From NCBI GenBank assembly GCA_002478275.1, contig DLMY01000003.1, positions 25,756 through 89,755 on the forward strand: a DNA stretch of 64,000 nt, given 5' to 3'. A program made the position numbers and the translations under genes. The stretch's first letter is position 1, and every line of letters begins with the position of its first letter. The notes beneath the pieces are model-generated. The model made no database searches. It saw nothing but the letters and a program-made list of their open reading frames with translations, and was not told where the DNA came from. Shown one piece after another: positions 18,576-64,000 of this stretch. This DNA is from Actinobacteria bacterium UBA7524. Its GTDB lineage: Bacteria; Actinomycetota; Coriobacteriia; Anaerosomatales; UBA912.

Positions 18576-19040
18576 CTATTCGACCGCTTTGAGCAGTTCA
18601 GCCATCTCGATGGCGGACAACGCTGCGTCCCATCCCTTGTTGCCCGCCTTGGTGCCGGCGCGCTCGACAGCCTGCTCGATCGTGTCCGCCGTGATCAACC
18701 CGAACACGACCGGTATCCCGGAATCGAGCGACGCCTTCGCGACACCCTTACTCGCCTCTGCCGCAACGTACTCGAAGTGGGGGGTGCCTCCCCGGATGAT
18801 CACCCCGAGCGTTATGACAGCGTCATAGCGGCCGGAGTCGGCGAGCTTCTTGGCGACCAACGGGATCTCGAACGCGCCGGGTACCCAGGCGACATCGATG
18901 TCGCCCTCTGCGACTCCATGGCGAATGAGCGCGTCAGTCGCTCCCCCGAGTAGTCTCGTTGAGAGCAGCTCGTTGAAACGGCTCACCACTATCCCGACCT
19001 TAAGACCGGTTCCGATCAAATTGCCTTCGAACGTCGTCAT
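18576..19040 (-). CDS. ribH: 6,7-dimethyl-8-ribityllumazine synthase
   Basis: [53 protein letters not shown]. Confidence 0.92.
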
Positions 19041-22164: not shown

Positions 22165-22282
22165 CTCTCTTCTCCCATCCGGACTGTGACCGTCGGCTCC
22201 GGAATCTCACCGGATCGACCCCTTGCGGGGCTCGCGGGCTTTCACCGCCGGTGGGGAATCTCACCCCGCCCTGAAGAAAGTG
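22165..22282 (-). promoter_or_regulatory. FMN riboswitch (RFN element) leading the ribD-E-BA-H operon
   Basis: Minus strand reads CTTCAGGGCGGGGTGAGATTCCCCACCGGCGGTGAAAGCCCGCGAGCCCCGCAAGGGGTCGATCCGGTGAGATTCCGGAGCCGACGGTCACAGTCCGGATGGGAGAAGAG, which matches the conserved RFN core. It is preceded by an extended -10 TGCTATACT (-10 hexamer at 22297-22292). Confidence 0.9.
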
Positions 22283-49344: not shown

Positions 49345-51002
49345 AGGACCACCCGGTCGATCTCCTCGAACGACGTGATGCCGTCGGCGACCTTGTCCAG
49401 CGCATCACGGCGCATCGGTGTCATGCCGGCAGCCAGTGCCAACTGACGCAGCTCCTCGGCAGGGGCATGCTCGAGGTACGCCTGGACTATGGCCTCGTCG
49501 AGCTGCATGACCTCGAAGACCGCGATGCGGCCGCGATAACCGGTGTTGCCGCATTCATCGCAGCCAACGGGCGCGAAGACCTCGACCTTCTTCGACTCCG
49601 CCGCCGTGAAACCCGCCGCAACCAGTCGAGGACCGGTGATCTTGACCTTCTCCTTGCAGGCAGGACACAGCTTGCGGACCAGCCGCTGGGCTATCACACC
49701 CGTCACCGCAGATGACGTGATATAGGGCGGCACCCCCATGTCGCTGAAGCGCGTGAGCGCCGACGGGGCATCGTTGGTGTGTAGAGAGGACAGCACCAGG
49801 TGTCCGGTCAGTGACGCCCTGACCGCGATCTCTGCGGTCTCGGGATCGCGAACCTCTCCGACCATGACGATGTCGGGATCGGCCCGCAGGATCGTACGCA
49901 ACCCAGCCGCGAACGTCAGTCCGATCCGGGGGTTCACCGCCATCTGTGTGACCCCGGCCATCTGGTACTCTATCGGGTCCTCGACGGTGAGCACCTTGCG
50001 AGTGGGATCCGAGAGGACCCCGAGGAGCGCGTAGAGAGTGGTGCTCTTACCCGAGCCGGTCGGACCGGTCACCAGGATCGCGCCATAGGGGCGCTGAAGC
50101 ATGCGCCTGATACACCTGAGGTTGTCCTGGGTGAGTCCGAGATCGTCGATGGAGTGGAAGGAGAGTTCGGAGTTCAGGATGCGCATCGTGATCGACTCGC
50201 CGTACACCGTCGGCACCGTGGCAACGCGGATGTCTACCGGGCGCTCGTCGATGCGGACACTGATGCGTCCGTCCTGTGGACGGCGTTTCTCGGCGATGTC
50301 GATGTCAGCCATGATCTTCACCCGGCTGAGAACGCCCGCACGCGCCGCCAGAGGCAGTTCCATGACGACACGCAAGACGCCGTCCACCCGGTAGCGAACG
50401 GTGAGTGAACGTCGCCCCGGCTCGATGTGTATGTCGCTGGCGTTCTCCTGGACGGCACCGCGGATGAGCTGGTTGACCAGGCGCACCACCGGCACGTCTT
50501 CCGCGGCGTTCACCTCGGCCTCTACGTCGAGTTCCTCCACGCTGTCCACCATCTCCTGGTAGACATCCGCGGATACGACGAACTTCTCGATAGCGTGCCG
50601 GACCTGGGACACTGCTGCTACGACGGGCCTGACGCGCATCCCTGTACGCATCTCAACGTCGTCGATGGATTCGATGTCGAGCGGGTCTGCCATCGCCAGG
50701 ATGAGCGTGTCCTCATCCTCGATCGCTACCGGTATGACATCACGGCGCTTCGCCATGCGCTCGGGAATGAGCGCGGTCACCGCACGGTCGATCGGATACG
50801 AAGTCAGGGAGACGTGTTCGAGACCCTTCTGGGACGCCAGTGCGCCTGCGATCTGGTCTTCGGTCAGCGCAAGCGAACGGACGAGGATCTCACCAAGCTT
50901 ACCGCCGTCCTCGGCCTGTGTCCTGAGGGCCTCTTCGAGCTGACCGGTCCTGATCAGGCCATTGGCCAGCAGAATGTCACCCAATCGCTCACGCTGTAAC
51001 AC
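49341..51002 (-). CDS. Type II/IV secretion-family hexameric ATPase (GspE/PilB/MshE type) with an N-terminal MshEN domain
   Basis: N-terminus RLGDILLANGLIRTGQLEEALRTQ plus KLGEILVRSLALTEDQIAGALASQ, Walker A VTGPTGSGKSTT, Asp/His boxes, and a C-terminal tetracysteine CPACKEK...CDECGNTGYRGR. Confidence 0.88.
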   Translation of the reverse strand: MLQRERLGDILLANGLIRTGQLEEALRTQAEDGGKLGEILVRSLALTEDQIAGALASQKGLEHVSLTSYPIDRAVTALIPERMAKRRDVIPVAIEDEDTLILAMADPLDIESIDDVEMRTGMRVRPVVAAVSQVRHAIEKFVVSADVYQEMVDSVEELDVEAEVNAAEDVPVVRLVNQLIRGAVQENASDIHIEPGRRSLTVRYRVDGVLRVVMELPLAARAGVLSRVKIMADIDIAEKRRPQDGRISVRIDERPVDIRVATVPTVYGESITMRILNSELSFHSIDDLGLTQDNLRCIRRMLQRPYGAILVTGPTGSGKSTTLYALLGVLSDPTRKVLTVEDPIEYQMAGVTQMAVNPRIGLTFAAGLRTILRADPDIVMVGEVRDPETAEIAVRASLTGHLVLSSLHTNDAPSALTRFSDMGVPPYITSSAVTGVIAQRLVRKLCPACKEKVKITGPRLVAAGFTAAESKKVEVFAPVGCDECGNTGYRGRIAVFEVMQLDEAIVQAYLEHAPAEELRQLALAAGMTPMRRDALDKVADGITSFEEIDRVVL

Positions 51003-51067: not shown

Positions 51068-51358
51068 TCACGCACGCGCACGGATGACGCTCAGTACCCA
51101 TTCGACGAGAAGCATGACTGCTACCGTGATCGCGGCACTGACATCGAACACGCCACCGTACGGGGTCTTGATGTGTTCTATGCCCGTCGGTAGCGTGAGA
51201 TAGCCACCGAGCCGTACGATCGCCTGACCCCACGACTCGCTCGACAGTGCACCGAAGAAACGAATGACGATGGTGGCGGTGACGATCACCGCGAGGATGA
51301 CGAACACATTCATGACGATCGTTATGAGCGAACGGGTGGACTTCGAAGACACGATCAC
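51068..51358 (-). CDS. Small predicted membrane protein (two hydrophobic segments), function unknown
   Basis: ..LITIVMNVFVILAVIVTATIVIRFF.. and ..VSAAITVAVMLLVEWVLSVI. The alternative-frame 115-aa ORF 51021..51368 looks non-coding (Arg/His-rich). Confidence 0.55.
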   Translation of the reverse strand: MIVSSKSTRSLITIVMNVFVILAVIVTATIVIRFFGALSSESWGQAIVRLGGYLTLPTGIEHIKTPYGGVFDVSAAITVAVMLLVEWVLSVIRARA

Positions 51359-51461: not shown

Positions 51462-51728
51462 CTATCGAATGGAGTCCGAGACGATCCGTCCGATCATCTT
51501 CTCAGCGACCTCAGCACCGGTCAGCCCGGCTGCACTGAGTTGGCGGCGCGCATGGTCGACTCGATCCTGCCGGGTGTCGGGCACGCCCGCGAGCACTTCC
51601 TGGATCTTCGCGACCAGGTCCGAAGACACACCGTAACGATCCGCTCTGCACTGGCGCGCCGCTTCGCTGCACTCTGGTGTCTGCAGGTACTCGGCGGCAA
51701 GCCGGACCTGCTCGTGTGAAATGATCAT
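51462..51728 (-). CDS. FlgM-like anti-sigma factor candidate (88 aa)
   Basis: The C-terminus RQDRVDHARRQLSAAGLTGAEVAEKMIGRI aligns by eye with the FlgM C-terminal helix region (B. subtilis [31 protein letters not shown]). ATG at 51728 after GGGGAA. Confidence 0.4.
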   Translation of the reverse strand: MIISHEQVRLAAEYLQTPECSEAARQCRADRYGVSSDLVAKIQEVLAGVPDTRQDRVDHARRQLSAAGLTGAEVAEKMIGRIVSDSIR

Positions 51729-52082: not shown

Positions 52083-53633
52083 TCAGCCCGAGATCGAGAA
52101 GAAGCTGACCAGTTCCCCGAGTCCGGTGACGATGGGTACGATTCCGACGGCCAGCAGCGCGATTGCGACGACTGCAGCCGTGATCACGGCAAGCCGACCT
52201 CTCATGGGCTCATCGGCACCATCGACGGCCTCCGACTCGTCGCTGGATGCGTCATCTGCTGGATCGAGCGCCTCCCCGGCAACCTCTCCCCGATCCTGAT
52301 CGCTCTCGGTCCGGGTCTCAGCCGCAGGCTCCATGAAGTAGATGGTCTTGAGAACCCTGCCGTAGTAACCGAAGGAGACTACCGACCCGAGCACACCCAC
52401 AACAGCAAGCCACGTGAGGCCTTGCGTGGTCGCCGTGCCAAACACCAGCAGCTTGCCCCAGAATCCTGCGGTCAGCGGGATCCCGGTGAGCGAGAACATC
52501 GCCACTGCGGTGGATGCGGCAAGCAACGGCTTGCGGGATGCGAGTCCTGCCATCGCCGAGATGCTGCCGTCCCACGAATCTTCGCTCTGCTGTATCGCCT
52601 CGGCAACCAGGAACGCAGCGGCCGCGGCAAGGCCGTACGCGGCCATGAGCAACATCGACAGAGCGAAGCTGCGGCCTCCCGTGGCCGTGCCCACCAGCGC
52701 GTAGCCCACCTGCGCGATACCCGAGTAACCTAGCATGCGCGTGTAAGACTCCTGGCGCAGTGCGCCAAGGTTACCGATCACGATCGAACCCGCAGCAAGC
52801 AGGCCGAACACCATCTTGGGCTGCATCGTCGGCGAGACCGCCTGTACGGCGGGATACATCAGGAGACCGGCGATCAGAAAGACGGCCGACAGCGCCCCGA
52901 TCTTAGGCACCGAGGCCAACATCGCCGAGGAGACCGGAGGTGCGGTCTCATAAGCGTCCGGAGCCCAGGAGTGCATCGGAAACGCACCCAGCTTGAACGC
53001 GAGCCCGATGACTATCAGGACGGCCGCGAGCGTCGCCGGAAGGGTGAGCGCCTCGACACCGGCTGCCATCTGGAGCAACGAAGAGCCACTGGCGAGTAGT
53101 CCAGCAGCTATGGCGAGTCCCAGGACGAACAGTCCGGTCGCAGTGGCTCCCTGGATCGCATATTTCATCGATGCCTCGGCAGATGCCGGAGTACGCGCAG
53201 CCGATACAAGCGCGTAGCCGCATACCGCGATGATCTCAAGAGCGACGAGTGAGAGCAGCAGGTCGAGAGATGAAGCCAGCGCCGCGCTCGCTGCTGCAGC
53301 GAAGGTCAGCAAGGCCGCCATGCCGCCGCCTTCAGGGTGCCGTGCAAGAGATTCCCCGCCGCCGATGACCGCGATCGCGGAGATCGCGAACAGCGAGAAC
53401 CATATCCCGAAGAACCCATGGTCGGCCACGAGTACCTCGGCAACGACCTGTCCCGGGGCGGTAGCGTACAACCAGACGCACAGACCCGCAGCACCGGCCA
53501 GCGCCGCTGCGACGAGGGAGATGGCCAGTGCACGACGATGGAGCGCGTCCACGAAGACGGCCGCGATGCCTCCGGCAAGGGCGACGAGCAGAGGAGCGAG
53601 ACTCACCCACCACTGGACCTGCGTCACGGTCAC
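52083..53633 (-). CDS. nuoN: NADH-quinone oxidoreductase subunit N (antiporter-like)
   Basis: Polytopic Mrp/NuoN-type sequence. The GTG at 53633 overlaps the nuoM stop (GTGA); the upstream 85 codons of the track ORF are an Arg-rich overlap with nuoM. Confidence 0.88.
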   Translation of the reverse strand: MTVTQVQWWVSLAPLLVALAGGIAAVFVDALHRRALAISLVAAALAGAAGLCVWLYATAPGQVVAEVLVADHGFFGIWFSLFAISAIAVIGGGESLARHPEGGGMAALLTFAAAASAALASSLDLLLSLVALEIIAVCGYALVSAARTPASAEASMKYAIQGATATGLFVLGLAIAAGLLASGSSLLQMAAGVEALTLPATLAAVLIVIGLAFKLGAFPMHSWAPDAYETAPPVSSAMLASVPKIGALSAVFLIAGLLMYPAVQAVSPTMQPKMVFGLLAAGSIVIGNLGALRQESYTRMLGYSGIAQVGYALVGTATGGRSFALSMLLMAAYGLAAAAAFLVAEAIQQSEDSWDGSISAMAGLASRKPLLAASTAVAMFSLTGIPLTAGFWGKLLVFGTATTQGLTWLAVVGVLGSVVSFGYYGRVLKTIYFMEPAAETRTESDQDRGEVAGEALDPADDASSDESEAVDGADEPMRGRLAVITAAVVAIALLAVGIVPIVTGLGELVSFFSISG

Positions 53634-55063
53634 ACCCCCCGCCCGAGTAGTACTGCGAGCGTCTGGAGCACTCCGGCAGAGACGTCGGTGACCAGCCGCG
53701 GCCAAAGTCCCAGGAGCAGGACGGGCACGGCGAGCAGGGCGACGGCGAGCAGGCCGCGCAGATCGAGATCGTCCAGATCGGGATAGCCCTTCACTTCCGG
53801 ACCATGGTTGACGGCGCGGACCGCTCTCAGGTTGTACGCGGCGGCGAGCACCAGTCCGAGGCCGACCGGCGCAGTCCACCAAGCCCACGCCCCGAAAGCC
53901 TCCAGTAAGGCGACGAACTCACCTGGGAATCCAGACAACCCCGGAAGCCCGAGACTCGCGAGCCCGGCGAAGGTGAACGCGACCGCCCATCGAGGGACGA
54001 GGCGGCCAAGACCGCCGAAGCGGTCGATCATCCTCGTATGAGTCCACTCATAGAGCTCGCCTACCAGCAAGAACAGAAGGCCTGCGACCACGCCGTGCGA
54101 GACCATCACCAGCATCGCAGCGGACAAGGCAGCTTCCGTGCCGACGGAAAGCGCGATCACGACGAAGCCCATGTGGGAAACCGAGCTGTAGGCGACCAGG
54201 CGCTTGAGATCGTCTTGTGCAAGCGCCATCGCAGCACCGTAGATGACACCGATCACGCCGAGTGCGAACAGTACCGGCCTTGCGGCGTCCCACGCCTCGG
54301 GCGCGAGAGGCATCGTCAACCGCATCATCCCGTAACCGCCCATCTTGAGCAGCACCCCGGCCAGCAGTATCGAGCCGGCCGTCGGGGCTTCGACGTGAGC
54401 GTCGGGCAACCACGTATGCAAAGGTACGACCGGTATCTTGACCAGCATGCCGACGGACAGAAGGACGAACACGAGCATCCTGGGAAAGTCCGCCCCAGCC
54501 CCCGCAACCTGGGCGAACGTGGCAGCGCGGGCGGTATACATCGTGATCACGAGGCCGATCAGCATGAGCACACTGCCTGCGAACGTGTAGATGAAGAACT
54601 TCATCGCCGCGTGACGACGGTTCTCATGACCCCACTTGCCGATCAGGAAGTACATCGGGATCAGCACGGCCTCCCAGAACACGTAGAACAGCACGATGTG
54701 ATGTGCGAGGAACACTCCCATCACGGCGGCCTGCAAGCCCAACAGCAACGCGTGATGGGCCGCCGGCCTGTCGTCGACCCTCCATGAGGCGAGAACGGCC
54801 ACGATGCCCAGAAGTGCAGTAAGCGCCACCAGCGGTGCCGAGAGGCCGTCGATGACGAGCTGCCACGCCCGCTGGACGTCGCCGAGTTCGACCAGCCCGT
54901 GAGCCGATGAGCCCACGAACACCCCGAGCGGCTGCAGGGAGATCACTGCGCCAGCGGTGACCAGCGTGCTCAAGAAGGCGACGATGCGCGCTCTGGAGCC
55001 AGCCAGCGCCGTGAGCAGCGCTCCGGCCAGCGGCAGCAGCACTATGAGATCGACACGCAGCAC
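53630..55063 (-). CDS. nuoM: NADH-quinone oxidoreductase subunit M
   Basis: 477-aa antiporter-like subunit: ..FYVFWEAVLIPMYFLIGKWG....HTWLPDAHVEAPTAGS..LAG.LLK.G.YG. Confidence 0.9.
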   Translation of the reverse strand: MLRVDLIVLLPLAGALLTALAGSRARIVAFLSTLVTAGAVISLQPLGVFVGSSAHGLVELGDVQRAWQLVIDGLSAPLVALTALLGIVAVLASWRVDDRPAAHHALLLGLQAAVMGVFLAHHIVLFYVFWEAVLIPMYFLIGKWGHENRRHAAMKFFIYTFAGSVLMLIGLVITMYTARAATFAQVAGAGADFPRMLVFVLLSVGMLVKIPVVPLHTWLPDAHVEAPTAGSILLAGVLLKMGGYGMMRLTMPLAPEAWDAARPVLFALGVIGVIYGAAMALAQDDLKRLVAYSSVSHMGFVVIALSVGTEAALSAAMLVMVSHGVVAGLLFLLVGELYEWTHTRMIDRFGGLGRLVPRWAVAFTFAGLASLGLPGLSGFPGEFVALLEAFGAWAWWTAPVGLGLVLAAAYNLRAVRAVNHGPEVKGYPDLDDLDLRGLLAVALLAVPVLLLGLWPRLVTDVSAGVLQTLAVLLGRGV

Positions 55064-55066
55064 CGG

Positions 55067-56920
55067 CTAGCCCCCCACCCCTACGAATCCGACGATACGC
55101 TGCCACATGATCGACAGCACGAACAACACGATGAAGCCGGTGACGACGAGCGATGAGTACCACTGCACATCGCCCATCTGCATCCTGCGCAGGACGTCGC
55201 CCGTGCGGTTGGCGAGCCAGGCGGTACCTTCGGCGGCTCCGTCGATCACGACCCTGTCGACGGTGCGGTACAGCCACGAGCAGAACGTGGTGACCGGACG
55301 AACGATCACGGACGCTACGAGGGCGTCGAACCCGTAAGCCCGGCCGAGCACAGGCCACAACGGTCCGAGCTTCGACTCCAGCGCGCTGTCCGCGAAAACT
55401 CCTCGCTTGTACACGAGAGCGCCAAGCGCGATGAACACGACTGCGATGCCCGTCGAGACGGCAGCAGTCGTGAGATGCAGCTTCTCTGCATGCCCGCCGA
55501 GGAGAACCGCGATCCTGCCACCGCCGAACCCGGCGACAGCTGCGACTGCGGCGAGCACCACCAGCGGCACCGCCATCACCGGCCCGGACTCGTGCGGATG
55601 TCCTGACCCGCGATACGAGCCCGCGAATGCGAGCATGGTCGCGCGTGTGATGTAGAAGGCCGTGAGCGCACTGGCGGCGAACAGGACCGCGCCTGCGATC
55701 GGCTGCGACGACCACACTGCGTGCAGGACTTCGTCTTTCGAGAAGAAGCCCGCGAGCGGAGGGACCCCGGCCAATGCGAGGCTGCCTATGACCCACGTCA
55801 CAGCTGTCACGGGCATCGCCTTCGCGAGACCACCCATCTTGCGCAGGTCCTGGGTACCGGTGCCATGGATGACACTACCGGACCCCAGGAACAACAGCGC
55901 TTTGAACGCGGCGTGTGTCGCGAGATGGAACATCGCGATGATCCAAGCACCTGCGCCCAACGCCGCGAACATGAAGCCCAGCTGGCTTATCGTCGAGTAC
56001 GCCAACACCTTCTTGATGTCCGATTGCGCCAGCGCGATCGTAGCTGCGGCCAATGCCGTGAAAGCTCCGACGGCGAGCACGACCGTCTGGGCCGCGGGCG
56101 ACGCTTCGAAGACGGGCCATACGCGGGAGACCAGGAAGACGCCGGCGGCGACCATCGTCGCGGCATGGATGAGGGCGGACACAGGTGTCGGGCCCTCCAT
56201 CGCGTCGGGCAGCCAGATGTGCAGCGGGAACTGGGCGGACTTACCCATCGCTCCGACAGCCAGCAGCAGGGCGGCCACCGTCGCCACACCAGGCGCAAGC
56301 TGGGCAGCTACAGGCAGCAGCGTCGCGTAATCGAGCGCGCCGACCTCACGCCACAACAGCAAGAGGCCCAGGAGCAGGCCGATGTCGCCGACCCGGGTCG
56401 TGAGAAACGCCTTGACAGCCGCGGCAGCAGCCTCGGGCTTGGTGAACCAGAAGCCGATGAGCAGGTAGCTGCACGCCCCCACCAGCTCCCAGCCGATGAA
56501 CAACCCCGCAAGCCCGTCGGCGATCACGAGCGCCGACATCGAACCGGTGAACAGGCAAAGCAGGGCGAAGTAGCGGGTGAAACCGGGTTCCTCGGCCATG
56601 TATCCGACCGAGAAGACCATCACCATGAGCGCGACCAGGCCGACGACGAGCAGCATCAGCGCGACAAGACCATCGACATGCCAGCCGGCCGATATCGACA
56701 TACCCGCCGAGGAGATCCATTCGAAGCTGCCCTCCCCGGGCGTGCGTCCTCCGGCGATCGCGAGGTACGCGGAGACTCCCGTGACGAGCACGCTCAGCGG
56801 AGCGAGCATCGCGAGCCACGCAACCGCGCGACCCAGCACGCGGCCGCTGATTGCTACGGCGACCGCCAGAACGAACGGCAGCGCCACGGTGATCCAGGCG
56901 TTGTCAGCGAACCACGTCAC
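55067..56920 (-). CDS. nuoL: NADH-quinone oxidoreductase subunit L
   Basis: 617 aa: ..GWELVGACSYLLIGFW....KSAQFPLHIWLPDAMEGPTPVSALIHAATMV.AG. with a C-terminal lateral-helix region. Confidence 0.9.
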   Translation of the reverse strand: MTWFADNAWITVALPFVLAVAVAISGRVLGRAVAWLAMLAPLSVLVTGVSAYLAIAGGRTPGEGSFEWISSAGMSISAGWHVDGLVALMLLVVGLVALMVMVFSVGYMAEEPGFTRYFALLCLFTGSMSALVIADGLAGLFIGWELVGACSYLLIGFWFTKPEAAAAAVKAFLTTRVGDIGLLLGLLLLWREVGALDYATLLPVAAQLAPGVATVAALLLAVGAMGKSAQFPLHIWLPDAMEGPTPVSALIHAATMVAAGVFLVSRVWPVFEASPAAQTVVLAVGAFTALAAATIALAQSDIKKVLAYSTISQLGFMFAALGAGAWIIAMFHLATHAAFKALLFLGSGSVIHGTGTQDLRKMGGLAKAMPVTAVTWVIGSLALAGVPPLAGFFSKDEVLHAVWSSQPIAGAVLFAASALTAFYITRATMLAFAGSYRGSGHPHESGPVMAVPLVVLAAVAAVAGFGGGRIAVLLGGHAEKLHLTTAAVSTGIAVVFIALGALVYKRGVFADSALESKLGPLWPVLGRAYGFDALVASVIVRPVTTFCSWLYRTVDRVVIDGAAEGTAWLANRTGDVLRRMQMGDVQWYSSLVVTGFIVLFVLSIMWQRIVGFVGVGG

Positions 56921-56921
56921 G

Positions 56922-57236
56922 TCAGCCCTTCACCTCCGTGATCTCGTCGGTGCGGGTGCGTGCGGTCTTGCGAGCCAACGCAACGAGCAGCGCCAGCCCG
57001 ACCGCGGCGCCTGCGGCGGCGGTGACCATGAGGATGAGTGCGATGGCGCCGGTGTGTGTGGGGTCGGGCGTGATCGTGGTGGCGACCGTCGTCGTGCGAG
57101 AAAGCCCGACGAACAGCAGGGTCGCGGAACCGAGCATCATCTCGATGGACGCAAGGACCCCGACTATGTCGCGCCGAGTAAGCACACCATAGAGAGCGAG
57201 GGAGAAGAGTACCATCGTGACCACGATGAAGTTCAT
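56922..57236 (-). CDS. nuoK: NADH-quinone oxidoreductase subunit K
   Basis: 104-aa three-helix protein: ..LYGVLTRRDIVGVLASIEMMLGSA... Confidence 0.85.
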   Translation of the reverse strand: MNFIVVTMVLFSLALYGVLTRRDIVGVLASIEMMLGSATLLFVGLSRTTTVATTITPDPTHTGAIALILMVTAAAGAAVGLALLVALARKTARTRTDEITEVKG

Positions 57237-57733
57237 CGCTTCTCACCTCCCACGATGACGACCGCCGCGACGAGTGCTGCGAGCAAGAGCACACCAGCGG
57301 CCTCGAAATGCGGCAGATACGCGCCGAGCAACGACACGCCTATCTCGGCATCGGCGCCGCCGACGGTGGGCAGCTGCCCGGTCACATACTCACGAAGCGA
57401 GGTGATGACCAGCACGGCGACGCCCACGGCGACAACCGCACTGTCCAACGCATGACGCGACGTCAGCTCGGGCAGGCCCTGCTCCGAGCGGTGCAGGAAC
57501 ATGATCGCGAACAGGATGAGCACCAACACGCCGCCGACATAGACGAACACCTGGGCGATGGCGACGAACGCATGGCCGAAGTACAGGAACCAGCCTGCGA
57601 CGGAGAGAAGGAATACCCCGAGGCCGAGCGTGAGCCGCATGACATCGCGCGTGAATACCGCTGTCGCCGCACCTGCGATCGATATCGCCGAGAGAAGCCA
57701 GAACGCGATGTCGGCAAGGTTGAGCTCCATCAC
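57233..57733 (-). CDS. nuoJ: NADH-quinone oxidoreductase subunit J
   Basis: 166 aa: ..FWLLSAISIAGAATAVFTRDVMR....VYVGGVLVLILF. 4-nt overlaps on both sides. Confidence 0.85.
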   Translation of the reverse strand: MMELNLADIAFWLLSAISIAGAATAVFTRDVMRLTLGLGVFLLSVAGWFLYFGHAFVAIAQVFVYVGGVLVLILFAIMFLHRSEQGLPELTSRHALDSAVVAVGVAVLVITSLREYVTGQLPTVGGADAEIGVSLLGAYLPHFEAAGVLLLAALVAAVVIVGGEKR

Positions 57734-59733
57734 GCCTCACCCCCGCTGTCGCCGGGGTGAATTCCGTCCCGACCGGTCGAGCGCGTGCCGGCAGGATCGC
57801 GCAACATCTCGTCGCGATCGAAGATCATGAGATCGCGCTGGTAGAAGGAGAGCTCGTACTGCCCGGTATGTCGCAACGCATCGGTCGGACACTGTTCGGC
57901 ACACAGGCCACAGAAGCAGCACTTCGTCAGGTCGAGGTCGTAGTGGGTCACCTTGCGCTCGCCGGGATCGTCGATGCGGTCCACGGAGATCGCGTAGTCG
58001 GGGCAGGTCCGCGCGCAGAAGGTGCATCCGACGCACACACCGGTCTGACACCTCAGACAGCGCGCAGCCTCGTTCAGCGCCTCCAGATGGGTCATGCCGA
58101 GTTCGACCTGACGGAAGTCGGTCGCCCGTTCCTCCGGCCGCGCCATAGGCATCGGCACGCGTCTACGGCTTTCCTCGACGCCTTCGACCGTCGCGACCTG
58201 ATAGCGGTCGTACACAGGGACCGGACGAGCGACACGACCCTCGAAAAGGTCGTGTCCCTGAAGGTAGCGGTCGATCGAGATGGCCGCCTCGTGGCCCGAG
58301 GCGATCGAAGCGATGGCGCTACCGGGGCCGGTCACCACCTCGCCACTCGCGAAGACCCCGGGGACATCGGTGGTCATGACCTCGCCGTCGACCGGCAGAA
58401 GGCCGCGGTCGGTGAGCATCAGGTCCGAGCCGCCCACCAGGTCGGCGAGCAACGGCGCCTGTCCGATCGAGAACACGACGACATCGCAGTCGACGGTTGT
58501 GTACTCGTCGCCGAACTTGGGTGAGAAACGGCCGGATTCATCGAACACGGAGAGGCATTCGCGCAGCTGCATGCCAACGACCTTGCCATCCTGCTCGAGC
58601 ACCTTCTCGGGACCCTGGCCGCACATCGCTATGACGCCCTCGTCGAGCGCTTCCTCGATCTCCCAGGGGTGACAGGGCATCTCCTCGGAGGCCTCCAGGC
58701 ACGCAAGCCGTACCTCGCTCGCCCCGACACGCAAAGCGCACCGGGCCACGTCGACCGCGACATTGCCGCCGCCGATGACCATGACCCGCAAGCCCTTGAC
58801 GCCGGCATCGCCCTTCCAGTTCGATTCCCGGAGGAACTCCAACGCGCCCCTAACGCCGTCGGCGTCAGTGCCGGGGATCGGCAGCAAGCGGCTGACCTGT
58901 AAGCCTACAGCGATGAGTACAGCGTCGAACTCGCCCATGAGGTGATCGATGGGCACGTCGACGCCGATCTCGACACCGCAGTGCAGCTCAAGCCCGAGCG
59001 CGACCAGGTCGTCGATCTCGCCGTGAAGCACTTCGCGGGGCAAACGGTACGAAGGCACGCCGGAGTACAGCGCCCCTCCGGGCTTGGCCTCCTTCTCGTA
59101 CATGGTGACCTTGTAGCCCAGGCGCATCAGGTCGAAGGCGGCCGCCAGTCCCGATGGTCCGGAACCGATGATCGCGACCGACTTGTCCTGCGTCACAGGC
59201 ATGGGCGAAAGCGCAGGCTTGTTCTCCTGATACGCCTCGTACGCCATGCGATGAAGCGGCCTGATGGCGAGAGGTTCGTCATAGTAGTTGCGCCTGCAGG
59301 CGTTCTCGCACGGATGGTGGCAGATGCGTCCGAGCACGCCGGGCATGATGTTGCGCTCGCGAACCAGTTCGTATGCTTCCACCGGGCGGTCATCGGCCAT
59401 GTAGTAGTTCTGGCCTCGCGCATCCACGTTCGCGGGACAGTTGCCGACACAAGGGGCGAGTCTCTCCTCGGCGTACAGACCGGCGATGATACCGTTGTAC
59501 TCGGGCGCCTGGCTTCGGACGACCTCGATCTCGTCGTGGCCGAGGATACCGTTCAGATGCAGCGAGCCGCGCCAACGTGCCGTCATCGGCAGCTTCTCGG
59601 CAGGGTAGCTGAGCGTCTTATGCGGCCCCATCGCGCGGCCGAGTGTGATCGACAGACCCGTCGCGAGCGACTTCCAGCGCTCGACGACGCCGGCGATGCC
59701 CTCGGAGTACTCGTTGCTGACCTGGGGCCTCAC
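57730..59733 (-). CDS. nuoI: Chimeric NuoI: NuoI N-terminal segment, then an inserted GltD/NfnB-like NAD(P)H-FAD-FeS oxidoreductase module, then the NuoI 2x[4Fe-4S] ferredoxin domain (667 aa)
   Basis: NuoI-like ends: ..WKSLATGLSITLGRAMGPHKTLSYPAEKLPMTARWRGSLHL and CVGCTFCARTCPDYAISV..LTKCCFCGLCAEQCPTDAL..YELSFYQRDLMIFDRDEML. The insert (about nt 58075-59550) contains CVGNCPANVD..GRICHHPCENAC, VAIIGSGPSGLAAA, VMVIGGGNVAVDVA and GVFASGEVVTGPGSAIASIASGHEAA. The GTG at 59733 overlaps the nuoH stop. Confidence 0.85.
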   Translation of the reverse strand: MRPQVSNEYSEGIAGVVERWKSLATGLSITLGRAMGPHKTLSYPAEKLPMTARWRGSLHLNGILGHDEIEVVRSQAPEYNGIIAGLYAEERLAPCVGNCPANVDARGQNYYMADDRPVEAYELVRERNIMPGVLGRICHHPCENACRRNYYDEPLAIRPLHRMAYEAYQENKPALSPMPVTQDKSVAIIGSGPSGLAAAFDLMRLGYKVTMYEKEAKPGGALYSGVPSYRLPREVLHGEIDDLVALGLELHCGVEIGVDVPIDHLMGEFDAVLIAVGLQVSRLLPIPGTDADGVRGALEFLRESNWKGDAGVKGLRVMVIGGGNVAVDVARCALRVGASEVRLACLEASEEMPCHPWEIEEALDEGVIAMCGQGPEKVLEQDGKVVGMQLRECLSVFDESGRFSPKFGDEYTTVDCDVVVFSIGQAPLLADLVGGSDLMLTDRGLLPVDGEVMTTDVPGVFASGEVVTGPGSAIASIASGHEAAISIDRYLQGHDLFEGRVARPVPVYDRYQVATVEGVEESRRRVPMPMARPEERATDFRQVELGMTHLEALNEAARCLRCQTGVCVGCTFCARTCPDYAISVDRIDDPGERKVTHYDLDLTKCCFCGLCAEQCPTDALRHTGQYELSFYQRDLMIFDRDEMLRDPAGTRSTGRDGIHPGDSGGEA

Positions 59734-60680
59734 ATCCACGGGACGATCACCCCCACGATCACCAGCTGGACCAGTGCCATCGGGGTGAGGATCTTCCAGG
59801 CGGTGGTCATGAGCTGGTCGGAGCGCATCCGCGGGAAGGTCCACTTCACGAAGATGATCGCGGTGATCAGAAGGAGTGTGAGAGCGATGAAGAGTACGAC
59901 ACCGAAGGCTCCGGGCAGCCAGCGCCACCCTCCGAGGAAGACGGCGGCGCCGAACAGCGACGCGGCGACCACGGCACCGTACTCGGTCATCATGAAGATG
60001 CCCCAGCGGATGCCCGAGTAGTCTGCGAAGTAGCCCGCAACCAGCTCGGATTCGGCTTGCGGCAGGTCGAACGGGATGCTGTTGACCTCGGCGATCGAGG
60101 AGATGAAGTAGACGAGGAACCCGATGGCGTTAGCGAGGATCCACCAGGGACGCCAGGCCTCCATCACCTCAAGCGGCCGCATGGATCCGGCGAGCACGAC
60201 GACCGAGAGCACGGAGAGCGTGCGAGGCAGCTCGTAGGAGATCATCTGAGCTGCGGCGCGCAGACCTCCGATCGTCGCGTAGGTGTTGCGGCTCGACCAA
60301 CCGGCGAGCAACATGCCGATCACAGAAAGCGACGGTACTGCCAGGAAGAACAGCATGCCGATGCTCGTGTTCAGTGGCGCGAAGCCCGAGGCGAAGGGAA
60401 TCACCGTCAGGGACATGGCCACCGGCACGAAGACGATGTGCGGGGCGAGGCGGAACACTCGAACATCGACCTGAGCTGGGGTGATGTCCTCTTTGAGTAT
60501 CATCTTGAGGGTGTCGGCGGGCACCTGCAGCAGGCCGGCGGGACCGGTGGTCTGCGGCCCGATACGCATGTGGATGCGTCCGGCGACCTTGCGCTCCCAC
60601 CAGACTCCGAACACGGTCGCAAGGGCGATGAGCATGCCTCCCGCAAGTCCCCAGACGAGTCCTCCGACGAAGCCGCTCAC
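59730..60680 (-). CDS. nuoH: NADH-quinone oxidoreductase subunit H
   Basis: ..WWERKVAGRIHMRIGPQTTGPAGLLQVPADTLKM..KEDI.P.......ELV.G...EYSG.. Confidence 0.9.
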   Translation of the reverse strand: MSGFVGGLVWGLAGGMLIALATVFGVWWERKVAGRIHMRIGPQTTGPAGLLQVPADTLKMILKEDITPAQVDVRVFRLAPHIVFVPVAMSLTVIPFASGFAPLNTSIGMLFFLAVPSLSVIGMLLAGWSSRNTYATIGGLRAAAQMISYELPRTLSVLSVVVLAGSMRPLEVMEAWRPWWILANAIGFLVYFISSIAEVNSIPFDLPQAESELVAGYFADYSGIRWGIFMMTEYGAVVAASLFGAAVFLGGWRWLPGAFGVVLFIALTLLLITAIIFVKWTFPRMRSDQLMTTAWKILTPMALVQLVIVGVIVPWM

Positions 60681-61822
60681 CGGTCCACCTCCCCGAACAC
60701 GGGGTCCAGCGATCCGAGAACGACCACCAGGTCGGAGAGCGTGTGCCCCACAGCGAGCTTGGGCACCAGTGCGAGGTTGCAGAACGCCGGAGAGCGGAAC
60801 TTCACGCGATAAGGCCTGGGTGAGCCGTCGGCGACGATGTAGACGCCCAGCGAACCACGCGCGCTCTCGATGTGGTCGTACGCGTCACCTGCGCGTGGCA
60901 TGATCAGGCGCGGCTGGCCCTCGACCTTGTGTGGACCTGTCGGCATCTGCTCGATGGCTTGCTCGATGATGCTGCAGCTCTCGTAGCATTCCAGCAGACG
61001 CGTACGTGCGCGGTCGTACGCATCGCCGTTCTCGCCGATGGGAACGTTGAAATCGAATCGGGGGTACACGGAGTACGAGTCGTGTTTGCGCAGGTCCCAG
61101 TCCACGCCGGAACCTCGCGCGACCGGCCCGGAAGCACCCCACGCGACCGCGTCGTCGCGACCGAGCACGGCGACGCCCTTGAGCCTGCCGCGTGCGATCA
61201 CGTTGCCGAAGTACATGCGGTCCATCAGATCGAGTGCTTTGCGATGGGCCTTCGTGAACTCAAGGACCGAATCGGTCCAGCCTTCGGGAAGGTCGAAGGC
61301 GACTCCGCCGGGACGAACGTAGTTGTAGGTGAGCCGGGCGCCGCAGAGCTCCTCGAACAGCTCGATGATGCGCTCGCGCTCGTCGAAGGAGTAGATGAAG
61401 AGCGTGGCTGCGGCCGTGTCTGCCGCTGCCGACCCGATCGACATCATGTGGCTGGCGATACGCTGCATCTCTGCGACGATCACGCGGATGTACTCAGCGC
61501 GCTCCGGGACCCGGATGGCGGCAAGGCGCTCCACCGCACGGCAGTACGCCCAGTTGGAGTACATGCTGCCGACGTAGTCGAGACGATCCGTCAGTGGGAC
61601 CACCTGGAGATACGTACGGTTCTCGCACATCTTCTCGATACCGCGGTGCAGGTACCCGATGATCATGTCGGCCTTGGTGATGACCTCACCGTCGAGGTGA
61701 ACGACCACACGGCCGACGCCATGTGTGGAGGGGTGTGATGGACCGACGTTGACGACCAGCTCCTGACGGGGTCGTCCGTCGGGGCCCTCTGTCTGACGCT
61801 GCTCCTCTATCTGCAAAGACAT
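60677..61822 (-). CDS. nuoD: NADH-quinone oxidoreductase subunit D
   Basis: ..LVVNVGPSHPSTHGV.R.....DGE......IGYLHRG.EK..E.R.Y.Q..P.TDRLDY......E..R.SL. ATG at 61822 after GGAGAGGAGG. Confidence 0.9.
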   Translation of the reverse strand: MSLQIEEQRQTEGPDGRPRQELVVNVGPSHPSTHGVGRVVVHLDGEVITKADMIIGYLHRGIEKMCENRTYLQVVPLTDRLDYVGSMYSNWAYCRAVERLAAIRVPERAEYIRVIVAEMQRIASHMMSIGSAAADTAAATLFIYSFDERERIIELFEELCGARLTYNYVRPGGVAFDLPEGWTDSVLEFTKAHRKALDLMDRMYFGNVIARGRLKGVAVLGRDDAVAWGASGPVARGSGVDWDLRKHDSYSVYPRFDFNVPIGENGDAYDRARTRLLECYESCSIIEQAIEQMPTGPHKVEGQPRLIMPRAGDAYDHIESARGSLGVYIVADGSPRPYRVKFRSPAFCNLALVPKLAVGHTLSDLVVVLGSLDPVFGEVDR

Positions 61823-61881
61823 CGTGCGGTCCACCTCCTCTCCAAGCTCGAGGCCATCATCGGCCGGCCGTTCGCCACCGG

Positions 61882-62343
61882 TCAGATGTAGTCGGGCCTC
61901 TTGATGATGCGTTCATCCTGGTAGTCCTTGCGCAGTGGATGGCCGACCCAGTCCTCGGGCAGCATGATGCGGCGCAGGTCCGGATGACCGTCGAACTCGA
62001 TTCCGAACAAGTCGTAGACCTCGCGCTCCTGCCACAAGGCGGCAGGCCAAAGGTCGTACAAAGACCTGGTGTGGGGCTTGTCGCGCGGGACCAGGCACTT
62101 CAGGAACATCCCGACCGACATCTCGCGAGATGTCAGCCGATATACCATCTCGAAGTGCTCGCCCCGGTCGACCGCTGTGACCATGCCGAGCATGTCGAAG
62201 CCCAGTGACTTGAGATCGGCGGCAGCGTCGTAGAGTCCCCGGCACTCGACCTGCAAGGTGCCGTCCCCGAACTCGATCGAGAACAGAGGACACAGGTCGG
62301 GGTACTGGCCGCACAGGTGATCGCGGAGTTCGTCGATGTTCAC
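61882..62343 (-). CDS. nuoC: NADH-quinone oxidoreductase subunit C
   Basis: ..[51 protein letters not shown] at 62343, one nt after the nuoB stop. The longer track ORF overlaps nuoB out of frame. Confidence 0.88.
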
Positions 62344-62344
62344 G

Positions 62345-62932
62345 TCACCCCACCTCCCCCGGCTCTGAAGGCTCGACTGAAGCCCGGGATTCGCCGGGGC
62401 CCGGCAGGGTGAGCTTGCGAACATGGCGCGTGTTCGGGCCGATGGACTCCTGGCGGATCTTCTCACGCAACTGCATGAGAGCGTCTTGCACGGCTTCCGG
62501 ACGCGGGGGGCAACCGGCGATGTAGACGTCCACCGGAAGGAATTCGTCCACGCCGCGTACGACCGAATACGTGTCGTAGTAGAAGATGCCGCCCGATACG
62601 GTGCAGTTTCCCATGGCGATGACCCATTTCGGATCGGGCATCTGTTCGTAGAGCCTGATGACCGCCGGCTGCATCTTACGGGTGATCGTTCCCGCAACGA
62701 CCATGACGTCAGCGTGCCGCGGGTCCGCTTGCGGAATGACCCCGTGCCGGTCAGAGTCGAACTTGGTGAACGGGAAAGAAGCGATCATCTCCATGGCGCA
62801 GCACGCCGTGCCCATCGGCATGACCCACTGGGAGTGGCTACGAGCCCAGTCGAACAGGGCATCAAGGGAACTGAGAACGACGCGTCCCGGCCCATGCTCC
62901 AGCGCAGAGCCCACGCGATCTACAATCGCCAC
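62345..62932 (-). CDS. nuoB: NADH-quinone oxidoreductase subunit B (N2 cluster subunit), with a short Pro/Glu-rich C-terminal tail
   Basis: ..[11 protein letters not shown]...DV.VVAGT.T.KM.P.....[16 protein letters not shown].......V.GVD...PVDVYI.GCPPRPE. Start is the GTG at 62932, or alternatively 62914. Confidence 0.88.
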
Positions 62933-63288
62933 TGCAGCGCCCCCTTGGACCAGGCGTACATGAGGCCGAGGGCAAGGAACGCCGTGAACACAGCGACTTC
63001 GAGCATGCCGATCCAAGAGCCCCGCAGCGTCGGTGCGACGGCGAAGAGCAGGATGGCTTCAGCGTCGAAGAGGACGAACAGCACCGCGAGGGTGGAGAAG
63101 CGGATGTTCACCGACGCCCAGGGCGTACCCGCCTGTGGCATACCACATTCGTAGGGAGTGAGCTTCTCGTCGGTAGGCCGACGTGGTGACAGCAGATGAT
63201 TCGCACCGAAGACGAGGGCTATGAAGGCGGCGCCGGACACGACGAGTCCAAGCGCGAACAGCACGTTGTCAGCTGCCACTGCCTCCAT
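62920..63288 (-). CDS. nuoA: NADH-quinone oxidoreductase subunit A
   Basis: ..KLTPYECGMP......I.F...A.LF.LFD.E...LF. 122 aa, three helices. Confidence 0.88.
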   Translation of the reverse strand: MEAVAADNVLFALGLVVSGAAFIALVFGANHLLSPRRPTDEKLTPYECGMPQAGTPWASVNIRFSTLAVLFVLFDAEAILLFAVAPTLRGSWIGMLEVAVFTAFLALGLMYAWSKGALQWRL

Positions 63289-63317
63289 GTACTACCCCCT
63301 GCCCGTTCTGTGTCTAT

Positions 63318-63344
63318 GACTTTGTAACACTCCGTTACAAAGTC
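63318..63344. promoter_or_regulatory. Operator-like perfect palindrome 1 in the nuoA leader: GACTTTGTAAC-ACTCC-GTTACAAAGTC
   Basis: 11-bp perfect arms with a 5-nt spacer, 30-56 nt upstream of the nuoA ATG. It is an AT-rich island in GC-rich DNA. Confidence 0.55.
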
Positions 63345-63422
63345 CAGCCGGTGACACATCACCCTTGCAGCTTTCGCCCGGTCACGTGCAGCTCAGCCTG
63401 AGGCGACCGGAGCGAATGCCGC

Positions 63423-63451
63423 ATTGTACGCACATCAGCCCTACTTTGTAA
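63423..63451 (-). promoter_or_regulatory. Predicted sigma-70-type promoter of the nuo operon
   Basis: Minus strand reads TTACAA (63451-63446), a 17-nt spacer, then TACAAT (63428-63423). The -35 element lies inside palindrome 2. The predicted leader is about 125 nt. Confidence 0.5.
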
Positions 63452-63466
63452 ACATTGTTACAAAGT
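63443..63466. promoter_or_regulatory. Operator-like palindrome 2 overlapping the nuo -35 element: ACTTTGTAA-ACATTG-TTACAAAGT
   Basis: Same half-site (ACTTTGTAA / TTACAAAGT) as palindrome 1, with the spacer one nt shorter. The core TTGTAAACATTGTTACAA resembles the Rex box TTGTGAA-N4-TTCACAA or a CRP/FNR-type site TGTnA-N6-TnACA. Confidence 0.5.
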
Positions 63467-63522
63467 GTGTGTGTCCGACGGCCAGAACCGATGGCCCCGC
63501 CGTGGTCCGACACCCCATACGC

Positions 63523-64000
63523 TCAGAGTCCGCTCTCGCACTCCTCGACCTTCGCGGCCAGGACGATCCACTCTCCCTCAAGCGCGCCGAGCCTGGCCTT
63601 CACTGGCCCGTACTCCTGCATCGCGAGGTCGAACGCGTCCTTGTCCGCATACGTGGCTTCATCACCCAGTACTTCGACAAGCTCGTCGTGCCGCCTGCGT
63701 GTGAGCTCAAGCTCGGCCTCGACAGCGTCAAGCCGATCACGAAGCTCGCGTGTGGCGCGATATGCCCTATTGCGGGCCTCGGCCTCAGCGCGCTTACGCT
63801 CCTTGGATTTGGGGCCGGAGATGCCCTCCGGGGCGACACCCGCACCAAGGTCGCCCGGGGACTGGATGCCGGCACCGGCGTCGTTTCGGCGAGAACGACC
63901 ATGGCCGTCAGGTTCACTCTGACCAACCCGTTCGCGCTCGCCGCGCTTGAACAGGTAGTAATCGTAGTCGCCCTCGTAGACCCTGACCCCGCCGTCGGCG
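63523..64000 (-). CDS. C-terminal part of an ABC-F family ATPase (coiled-coil tail); its 5' end lies beyond the window
   Basis: Absent from the ORF track because there is no start inside the window. My translation reads ..ADGGVRVYEGDYDYYLFKRGERE...KSKERKRAEAEARNRAYRATRELRDRLDAVEAELELTRRRHDELVEVLGDEATYADKDAFDLAMQEYGPVKARLGALEGEWIVLAAKVEECESGL* with the stop at 63525-63523. Confidence 0.7.
   Translation of the reverse strand, partial: ADGGVRVYEGDYDYYLFKRGERERVGQSEPDGHGRSRRNDAGAGIQSPGDLGAGVAPEGISGPKSKERKRAEAEARNRAYRATRELRDRLDAVEAELELTRRRHDELVEVLGDEATYADKDAFDLAMQEYGPVKARLGALEGEWIVLAAKVEECESGL

Follow-up and report, generated by a model that had tools for sequence, protein, structure and literature searches.

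Relatives of respiratory complex I that lack the N-module subunits NuoE, NuoF and NuoG (EFG) and are encoded by an 11-gene nuo arrangement are well known in bacteria (Moparthi & Hagerhall 2011, PMC3144371; Degli Esposti 2015, PMC4758237). Such operons are found in Desulfitobacterium hafniense and, in the order nuoNMLKJIHDCBA, in the Coriobacteriia Anaerosoma tenue and Parvivirga hydrogeniphila; in these systems NuoI is treated as an ordinary ferredoxin-like protein of ca. 160-200 amino acids (aa), and where a donor of electrons is named at all, ferredoxin is assumed (PMC9686372, PMC3144371, PMC11238625). For the 11-gene nuo of the two cultured Anaerosomatales (OPB41), ferredoxin was suggested (Khomyakova 2022, PMC9686372). 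For the bacterial 11-subunit complex I, "No designated partner protein could be found" (PMC3144371), and the identity of the donor was still open in 2024 (PMC11238625). In the transhydrogenase subunit StnC, a GltD-like region (residues 102-565) forms an insertion in a NuoG-like subunit and holds flavin adenine dinucleotide (FAD), NADPH and two [4Fe-4S] clusters (C7 and C6); its FAD is non-bifurcating and electrons from NADPH go singly along the Fe-S chain (PMC10482914). The archaeal NfnA behaves like StnC (PMC12018979). Here we analyse 64,000 nucleotides (nt) of DNA from Actinobacteria bacterium UBA7524 (contig DLMY01000003.1, positions 25,756 to 89,755; this whole stretch is called the window below), where an 11-gene nuo operon encodes an enlarged NuoI, designated NuoI*, that carries an inserted GltD/NfnL-like FAD/NAD(P)H module. 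The 11-gene operon is ordinary by itself and the module inserted in NuoI is its unusual part. In the literature covered, which left out most subscription-journal papers, no GltD-like module is described as an insertion in the NuoI of a nuo operon.

NuoI* is 669 aa long, compared with the usual ca. 160-200 aa, and a 669 aa protein in NCBI/ENA (P0001) is 100% identical to it over the full query. It is organized as follows.

59554-59739, minus strand: N-terminal segment of NuoI, residues 1-62, containing the motif YPAEKLPMTARWRGSLHL; the counterpart of E. coli NuoI 24-50 is residues 36-62 (YP.E....R.RG..L)
58036-59553, minus strand: inserted module, residues 63-568, replacing the 9-residue loop 51-59 of E. 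coli NuoI
59215-59463, minus strand: Fer4_20-type Fe-S domain, residues 93-175 (PF14691, E=3e-14)
58255-59187, minus strand: FAD- and NAD(P)H-binding domains, residues 185-495 (PF07992, E=1e-25)
58693-58773, minus strand: beta1-alpha-beta2 of the NAD(P)H site, residues 323-349, ending in ACLE (346-349), with E349 invariant
58036-58254, minus strand: linker, residues 496-568, ending in RC561LRC564, homologous to the StnC/NfnA and PRK12771/DsrL-type linkers
57730-58035, minus strand: NuoI 2x[4Fe-4S] core and C-terminal tail, residues 569-669, with C569/572/575/579 and C607/610/613/617

Both halves of a NuoI are thus recognizable, and NuoI* departs from the canonical protein in that its N-terminal segment and its 2x[4Fe-4S] core lie 506 residues apart, separated by the Fer4_20 Fe-S domain, the FAD domain, the NAD(P)H domain and the linker. 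In the N-terminal segment, Y45, P46, R55, W56, R57 and G58 are invariant in 42 homologs. C569 aligns with C60 of E. coli NuoI and is followed by both CxxCxxCxxxCP motifs and the NuoI-specific tail, with all eight core Cys invariant (invariance of cofactor motifs was judged, here and below, over 42 to 120 homologs). E. coli NuoI residues 60-138 match window positions 58035-57802 by tblastn (E=3e-14). Profile models see the protein in pieces: the NuoI model TIGR01971 reaches 90.6 bits (cut-off 113) and matches residues 567-645 with its positions 42-121 only, and the NuoI NCBIfam models together span residues 553-651. The best NCBIfam model, PRK12771 (NF009410), covers residues 92-623 with 454 bits, below its cut-off of 516.

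The insert is most closely related to the StnC/NfnA subtype of GltD/NfnL-like modules. By sequence, the closest PDB chains are 9bov_A (E=5e-92), StnC (8oh5_C, 3e-83), NfnA (9n5u_A, 6e-83) and NfnB (4ylf_B, 3e-71); after 9bov_A, StnC and NfnA, the next PDB relatives are NfnB/NfnL, GltD and dihydropyrimidine dehydrogenase. NuoI* residues 93-618 align contiguously to StnC 100-624. An AlphaFold2 model of NuoI*, built from a 42-sequence alignment with a mean predicted local distance difference test score (pLDDT) of 64.9 and used for fold search only, has pLDDT values of mostly 80-97 in the FAD/NAD(P)H domains; with this model, Foldseek gave the same order of relatives as the sequence search, the top matches having a probability of 1.00. 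The Fer4_20 domain, the FAD and NAD(P)H Rossmann folds and the RCLxC linker of the StnC/NfnA-type module are present. Two free-standing GltD-like proteins, P0136 and P0137, belong to the CLE (non-YRR) subtype and have the same linker as the insert, with further Cys-rich segments and a long C-terminal extension in place of the NuoI core. They could be soluble relatives of the kind from which the NuoI insert was recruited.

The residues expected to hold the cofactors are conserved throughout the insert. The FAD motif GSGPSGL is invariant at G192, G194-S196 and L198, as is E215, and the second Rossmann motif GGGNVAVD (323-330) is invariant in full. The candidate cluster ligands C97, C101, C140, C144, C148 and H163 are all six invariant, as are C561 and C564 of the linker. 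In T. maritima NfnB, the distal cluster is bound by Cys39/42/47/100 and the FAD-proximal cluster by Cys51/90/96 and Glu117 (PMC7596348). H163 falls in the column of NfnB Glu117 and of StnC K170, which completes the ligand set of the FAD-proximal cluster in StnC as its fourth member (PMC10482914). Where StnC/NfnA have Lys and NfnL has Glu as fourth proximal ligand, NuoI* has His163; among ten other fused NuoI homologs, six have His and four have Lys at this position. From this alignment we infer that the proximal cluster is bound by C101, C140, C144 and H163. The distal cluster would be bound by C97 and C148, probably with C561 and C564 of the linker replacing two missing ligands. RC561LRC564 resembles the N-terminal RCLxC of GltD/PreT, with the shared context EA.RCL.C. 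C564 and C561 lie 5 and 8 residues ahead of C569, the first Cys of the first NuoI cluster motif, which we take, from the T. thermophilus structure, to bind N6a, the entry cluster. A cluster using these two linker Cys would therefore adjoin the entry cluster of NuoI.

The NAD(P)H site points to NADH as the substrate in this clade. Rossmann folds specific for NAD(H) typically carry an acidic residue at the end of beta2. Downstream of GGGNVAVD, E. coli GltD (NADPH) reads AYRRDEE and StnC, 9bov and 9n5u (NADPH) read YRR(T/S); E. coli PreT (NAD) reads VAREELD and NuoI* reads ACLEASE. E349, invariant in 120 of 120 close homologs, occupies the column of the PreT Glu and of the second Arg of YRR, so that the NADPH-binding YRR motif of the StnC/NfnA subtype is missing from NuoI*. 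In T. maritima NfnB, Y310-R311-R312 holds the 2'-phosphate of NADPH, and in DsrL the presence or absence of YRR tracks the measured use of NADP(H) or NAD(H) (PMC7596348). Because invariant E349 replaces YRR, as in the NAD-dependent PreT, the motif suggests a preference for NADH in this clade.

Among solved structures, the StnC/NfnA subunits of the NfnABC (Stn, Bfu-family) transhydrogenases (8oh5_C, 9bov_A, 9n5u_A) are thus nearest to the insert in sequence and fold, down to the RCLxC linker. In both cases the same GltD/NfnL-like module, with FAD and two [4Fe-4S] clusters (predicted for NuoI*), sits in a subunit of complex I ancestry, in StnC/NfnA one of N-module lineage, where it is a non-bifurcating pyridine-nucleotide port. 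The hosts differ, being NuoG-like and soluble in StnC/NfnA and the NuoI of a membrane complex here, as do the nucleotide motif (NADPH-specific YRR versus LE), the fourth proximal ligand (Lys versus His) and the downstream partner, a HydBC-like bifurcating core in the one case and a quinone site in the other. DsrL and PRK12771 proteins, iron-sulfur flavoproteins that act as NAD(P)H:acceptor oxidoreductases, share the linear layout of N-terminal Fe-S domain, FAD domain, NAD(P) domain, linker and C-terminal 2x[4Fe-4S] ferredoxin domain; in NuoI*, by contrast, the C-terminal domain is a genuine NuoI core with its tail, a NuoI N-terminal segment stands ahead of the module and the gene lies in a nuo operon rather than beside dsrAB.

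The fused gene is widespread among Coriobacteriia and occurs beyond them. Full-length homologs of at least 67% identity form more than 120 clusters (at 90% identity), and those with a source name come from Coriobacteriia or Coriobacteriales. Among GTDB species representatives, 21 genomes, mostly labelled Coriobacteriia, carry the fused gene, and all 21 have the order A-B-C-D-H-I*-J-K-L-M-N or the contig's share of it, with 14 holding the operon from nuoA onward. An exhaustive HMMER search over 1.84 billion representatives added about 10 further 50%-identity clusters of full-length fused NuoI with 39-52% identity. Four distant homologs were examined at their loci. P0135 (L030) and P0167 (L031) lie in complete nuoABCDH-I*-JKLMN operons, and P0129 (L027) has J-N behind it, its contig beginning a short way ahead of I*. 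These three loci have a GC content of 42-58% and therefore come from other lineages. The fourth, P0132 (L029, JGI 3300078363, a 2.7-kb contig; 45% identical), stands directly after a fragment of a NuoD-family gene with no nuoH between, so gene order may differ in at least one distant lineage. Within the close family, the insert domains are 75-80% identical and the NuoI Fe-S core 80%, compared with 52% for the NuoI N-terminus. Since the fused operon recurs across species and distant lineages and the insert is as conserved as the Fe-S core, the fusion is old and selected and not an assembly artefact.

The operon itself, established from a six-frame listing of open reading frames (ORFs) and start-codon analysis, consists of 11 contiguous genes on the minus strand in the order nuoA-B-C-D-H-I-J-K-L-M-N, its limits 63288 and 52083 being exactly the nuoA start and the nuoN stop.

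62920-63288, minus strand: nuoA (122 aa), PF00507 E=1.9e-28
62345-62932, minus strand: nuoB (195 aa), carrier of cluster N2, PF01058 E=2e-29; NF005012 217 bits, above its cut-off
61882-62343, minus strand: nuoC (153 aa, compact form), PF00329 E=3.9e-39; TIGR01961 123.3 bits, cut-off 122.45
60677-61834, minus strand: nuoD (385 aa, or 381 aa from an alternative ATG at 61822), PF00346 E=6e-88
59730-60680, minus strand: nuoH (316 aa), PF00146 E=6e-98; NF004741 310.7 bits, cut-off 305
57730-59739, minus strand: nuoI* (669 aa, with the inserted GltD/NfnL-like module), Pfam Fer4_20, Pyr_redox_2 and Fer4_7
57233-57733, minus strand: nuoJ (166 aa), PF00499 E=2.5e-25
56922-57236, minus strand: nuoK (104 aa), PF00420 E=6e-17
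55067-56920, minus strand: nuoL (617 aa), NF005141 625 bits, cut-off 556
53630-55063, minus strand: nuoM (477 aa), PF00361 E=3e-73
52083-53633, minus strand: nuoN (516 aa), TIGR01770 E=8e-77

Ten of the 11 products were identified by Pfam, with E-values from 6e-17 (NuoK) to 6e-98 (NuoH), and NuoN, which was outside the Pfam scan, by the NCBIfam model TIGR01770 (E=8e-77). At eight of the ten junctions, neighbouring genes overlap or are separated by at most 4 nt: 4-nt overlaps at D/H, I/J, J/K and M/N, 1-nt gaps at B/C and K/L, a 3-nt gap at L/M and an H/I overlap of 4 or 10 nt depending on which GTG (59733 or 59739) starts nuoI. The exceptions are A/B, a 13-nt overlap with the GTG at 62932, a start backed by N-terminal conservation in relatives, and C/D, a 47-nt gap. 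At the D/H junction, the end of nuoD (60677) and the start of nuoH (60680) overlap in the 4-nt sequence GTGA, and there is therefore no space for nuoE, nuoF or nuoG at their usual place. A scan downstream of nuoN found no terminator.

Genes for the N-module were also not found in the surroundings of the operon. E. coli NuoE, NuoF and NuoG (MG1655 operon) gave only noise by tblastn against the whole window (E ~0.8). Pfam scans assigned 30 other window ORFs to housekeeping genes or, for three of them, to no family; the genes include DNA polymerases, feoB, riboflavin and aromatic amino-acid synthesis, cobalamin salvage and a pilus ATPase. No NuoE, NuoF or NuoG match lies within ±10 kb in the loci of 21 relatives. 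The combination that defines a 14-subunit NDH-1, a flavin mononucleotide (FMN)-binding NuoF with NuoE and NuoG, is accordingly absent from the window and from these flanks. Cultured Anaerosomatales were reported to lack nuoEFG genome-wide (Khomyakova 2022, PMC9686372). A first-pass annotation of this DNA had proposed an 11-gene nuoABCDHIJKLMN operon with a 4-nt nuoD/nuoH overlap, nearly all junctions of 1-4 nt and no N-module genes. Each of these points holds, the junctions with the two exceptions given above, and the absence of N-module genes extends from the operon to the window, as judged by tblastn and Pfam/NCBIfam.

The remaining subunits look like the core of a working proton-pumping quinone reductase. 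Alignment to the E. coli subunits places the N2 ligands C63, C64, C129 and C158 at C44, C45, C110 and C141 of NuoB and the quinone-site residues H224 and Y273 at H38 and Y87 of NuoD. NuoA retains the equivalents of D79/E81 (D75 and E77), and most E-channel acidic residues are kept in NuoH. In the antiporter-like subunits, the Glu of transmembrane helix (TM) 5 and the Lys (or Glu) of TM7/8/12 are kept at all positions checked: the equivalents of E144, K229, K342, K399 and D400 in NuoL, of E144, K234, K265 and E407 in NuoM and of E133, K217, K247 and K395 in NuoN. Conservation of the quinone site, N2 ligands and pump residues is shared with the described 11-subunit enzymes. As a separate observation, NuoN residues ~446-485 form an acidic low-complexity insert of about 40 residues (EPAAETRTESDQDRGEVAGEALDPADDASSDESEAVDGADEP) ahead of the last transmembrane helix.

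Two other assignments of the core were considered and rejected. Membership in the Fpo/Fqo group disagrees with the NCBIfam scores, which are far below the cut-offs for all Fpo models (score/cut-off: FpoC 85/220, FpoD 349/600, FpoH 234/475, FpoI 55/180, FpoK 46/145, FpoL 410/1050), and the scanned ORFs of the window included no FpoF-like gene. A membrane-bound hydrogenase or Mbx-MBS complex (group 4 [NiFe]) disagrees with NuoD, which lacks the [NiFe] Cys motifs (N-terminus GPSHPSTHG, C-terminus LDPVFGEVDR) and scores only 24 bits against NiFeSe_Hases, below the cut-off, and with the Nuo A/J/K/L/M/N set of the operon. The core thus looks unlike a hydrogenase, Fpo or Mbx relative.

Taken together, we consider it probable, with moderate confidence, that the complex brings its own FAD-based electron input and works in the forward direction as an NAD(P)H:quinone oxidoreductase, in this organism probably with NADH as substrate. 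The GltD/NfnL-like module in NuoI would replace the missing FMN-based NuoEFG input. Electrons from NAD(P)H, in this clade NADH, would pass via FAD to the FAD-proximal [4Fe-4S] cluster (C101, C140, C144, H163) and on to the distal [4Fe-4S] cluster (C97, C148 and probably C561 and C564), from there through N6a and N6b of NuoI to N2 of NuoB and finally to (mena)quinone at the NuoD/NuoH site, and this flow would be coupled to H+ translocation by NuoL/M/N. Cofactor occupancy, the exact cluster ligands and an electron-transfer distance between the distal cluster and N6a are predictions from sequence; quinone is the presumed acceptor. The machine should be reversible, and its physiological direction is presumed to be the forward one. 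The insert is a plausible donor because it is homologous to the StnC/NfnA module, which feeds NADPH electrons into an Fe-S chain (PMC10482914, PMC12018979). The first-pass annotation had named the GltD-like insert as the only candidate donor module in cis, and the complete and invariant FAD, NAD(P)H and Fe-S motifs bear this out. It was also right that complex I relatives without EFG are known (PMC3144371; PMC9686372 for this lineage). Its statement that each of them needs a dedicated donor module was too strong, most bacterial 11-subunit enzymes having no known partner (PMC3144371, PMC11238625).

Several observations weigh against this reading or parts of it. The acceptor is not secured, as respiratory quinones were "not detected" in two cultured Anaerosomatales (PMC9686372). 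In the N-terminal Fe-S domain of NuoI*, the first two Cys of the canonical RCLxC are absent, and we can only hypothesize that the RCLRC of the linker rescues them. The AlphaFold2 model has a pLDDT below 50 in the Fe-S regions, the linker and the NuoI core, so that the geometry between insert and N6a is a prediction from sequence. In NuoK, E. coli E36 is kept (E32) but E72 is lost, being replaced by G76. Codon 76 specifies Gly here, as it does in two identical Logan contigs of independent origin; nearly all relatives have Glu at this position and one (L016) has Lys. The change may affect the efficiency of proton pumping in this strain. As to the nucleotide, a single motif is suggestive only, and the distant fused NuoI are divided: six have YRR (P0133, P0134, P0135, P0164, P0167, P0181) and four have LE (P0129-P0132). 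For all fused NuoI taken together, NAD(P)H-linked is the best description.

The main alternative concerns the direction of electron flow. The same machine could run in reverse, the proton-motive force driving electrons from menaquinol to NAD(P)+ in H2- or formate-oxidizing anaerobes, with the insert as an NAD(P)+-reducing exit that serves biosynthesis. Complex I is reversible, and sequence sets no direction. The cultured relatives grow lithotrophically on H2 or formate, fix CO2 and possess an uptake hydrogenase of group 1i that is linked to quinone (PMC9686372), and GltD/DsrL-type modules are themselves reversible, DsrL-1A being biased to NAD+ reduction (PMC7596348). The failure to detect quinones in the cultured isolates burdens this alternative as well. 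We regard the reverse direction as possible but rather unlikely; that one of the two directions applies, forward or reverse, we hold with considerable confidence.

A dependence on ferredoxin, as in cyanobacterial NDH-1 and the Methanothrix Fpo-like enzyme, would leave the insert an auxiliary role as a regulatory domain, second port or docking platform. Proposals for the donor of bacterial 11-subunit enzymes usually name ferredoxin (PMC9686372, PMC11238625, PMC3144371), the pair of [4Fe-4S] clusters in this domain leads to ferredoxin in NfnL (PMC10482914) and pyruvate:ferredoxin oxidoreductase is encoded in the genomes of relatives (PMC9686372). An auxiliary domain, however, is unlikely to keep all its FAD, NAD(P)H and cluster residues invariant or to match the conservation of the Fe-S core. 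Located just ahead of the N6a motif, the insert would also cover the docking site of a soluble donor, and Pfam/NCBIfam found no NdhS/V/O-like genes in the operon. We therefore judge ferredoxin dependence improbable.

The FAD could alternatively be bifurcating (or confurcating) as in NfnSL, splitting the electrons of NAD(P)H between menaquinone, via N6a-N6b-N2, and a low-potential acceptor such as ferredoxin; if true, the complex would be a membrane-bound counterpart of EtfABCX/Nfn coupled to the proton-motive force. The module is homologous to the bifurcating NfnL and keeps, as R232, the Arg that contacts FAD N5 in NfnL. Its nearest relatives StnC and NfnA, which share the linker, nevertheless have a non-bifurcating FAD (PMC10482914, PMC12018979), and the proximal-cluster ligand is His rather than the Glu of NfnL. 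The operon contains no NfnS-like [2Fe-2S]/FAD partner or second exit path, and with the distal cluster apparently wired to N6a no separate low-potential branch is left, which makes bifurcation very unlikely. Equally unlikely is a normal N-module encoded by an unlinked nuoEFG cluster in another part of the genome, with a different role for the insert. Such a split arrangement has a precedent in one Chloroflexi genome with an 11-gene nuo operon and a separate nuoEFG operon (PMC5736913). Against it, no such genes lie in the window or within ±10 kb in the 21 relatives, cultured members of the order were reported to lack EFG genome-wide (PMC9686372) and NuoC (153 aa) has the compact form typical of EFG-less enzymes; a 506-residue insert ahead of the N6a motif would also probably take up the surface on which NuoG docks.

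If the NAD(P)H:quinone oxidoreductase reading is true, the insert represents an additional independent solution to electron entry into the Q-module, beside NuoEFG with FMN, FpoF with F420 and ferredoxin with NdhS. The role proposed for it is that of the canonical NuoEFG, which oxidizes NADH and delivers single electrons via Fe-S clusters to N6a of NuoI. The two are unrelated in fold and in cofactors: NuoEFG consists of three subunits with FMN in NuoF and 5-7 clusters, whereas the module here would be a single inserted domain that holds FAD and two clusters. FpoF of the archaeal F420H2 dehydrogenase and NdhS/V/O of cyanobacterial NDH-1 are likewise input devices for an 11-subunit core; they differ in being separate proteins with other folds and substrates (F420H2 and ferredoxin). 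A gltD-related flavoprotein coupled to a complex I-related membrane module is also known from mbx-like operons of Thermotoga and some proteobacteria (PMC4758237). Those modules differ in being of the Mbx/Mrp-type (group 4 hydrogenase-like), their proposed function is the reduction of NAD(P)+ and, by the paper's description, the flavoprotein substitutes for NuoI (PMC4758237). In the present operon the candidate donor module is part of the complex itself, built into NuoI. This arrangement is conserved among subsurface Coriobacteriia, a widespread group, where at least 21 species have it, and also in more distant lineages. On the same reading, one plug-in GltD-like module would have been inserted into two complex I-related Fe-S subunits, the NuoG-like one in StnC and NuoI here. 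Should OPB41/Anaerosomatales carry the fused NuoI, the metabolic models that give them a ferredoxin donor may need changing. The NuoI* polypeptide leads to the prediction of FAD content, NADH:quinone activity and a short electron path of five centres.

The region upstream of nuoA contains a promoter-like site and two inverted repeats, and copies of the first repeat recur in related loci.

63423-63452, minus strand: promoter-like site TTTACA-18-TACAAT, ~135 nt upstream of nuoA, a consensus match only
63322-63340, no strand assigned: perfect palindrome TTGTAAC-N5-GTTACAA, candidate operator, 34-52 nt upstream of the nuoA start
63446-63463, no strand assigned: second related inverted repeat (TTGTAAACATTGTTACAA), overlapping the -35 hexamer, Rex-operator-like with 3 mismatches
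L008 1817-1835, L012 5635-5653, L014 6302-6320 and L021 6276-6294: perfect copies of the palindrome in related loci
L022 6322-6340, L023 6331-6349 and L024 6348-6366: further perfect copies

TTTACA-18-TACAAT is the only sigma-70-like match in 63200-64000, and the palindrome is unique in the window. Perfect copies lie upstream of nuoA (~30-100 nt) in seven related loci and near-copies in two more, with none elsewhere in those loci. The palindrome and the second repeat form a candidate operator pair, which suggests that a conserved repressor controls the operon. Control by Rex is not claimed; only the site with 3 mismatches was found, and the match is weak, 8 of 100 shuffles having given at least two such matches.

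Two small conserved ORFs directly follow nuoN on the minus strand, at 51462-51728 (88 aa, soluble) and 51068-51358 (96 aa, membrane), and have the same position in most relatives, followed here by a PilB-type secretion ATPase (49341-51002); neither has a Pfam match on record. They were rejected as subunits of the complex, as they travel with the PilB-type ATPase and have no redox motifs; they are more likely part of the pilus cluster than of complex I. Elsewhere in the window, an FMN riboswitch (Rfam RF00050, 117 bits) at 22163-22282 on the minus strand lies directly upstream of a riboflavin operon with ribD (21031-22164), ribE (20319-20987) and ribH (18576-19040). A DtxR/IdeR-type iron repressor fused to a FeoA domain is encoded at 10317-10976 on the minus strand, immediately upstream of feoB (8283-10310, minus strand).

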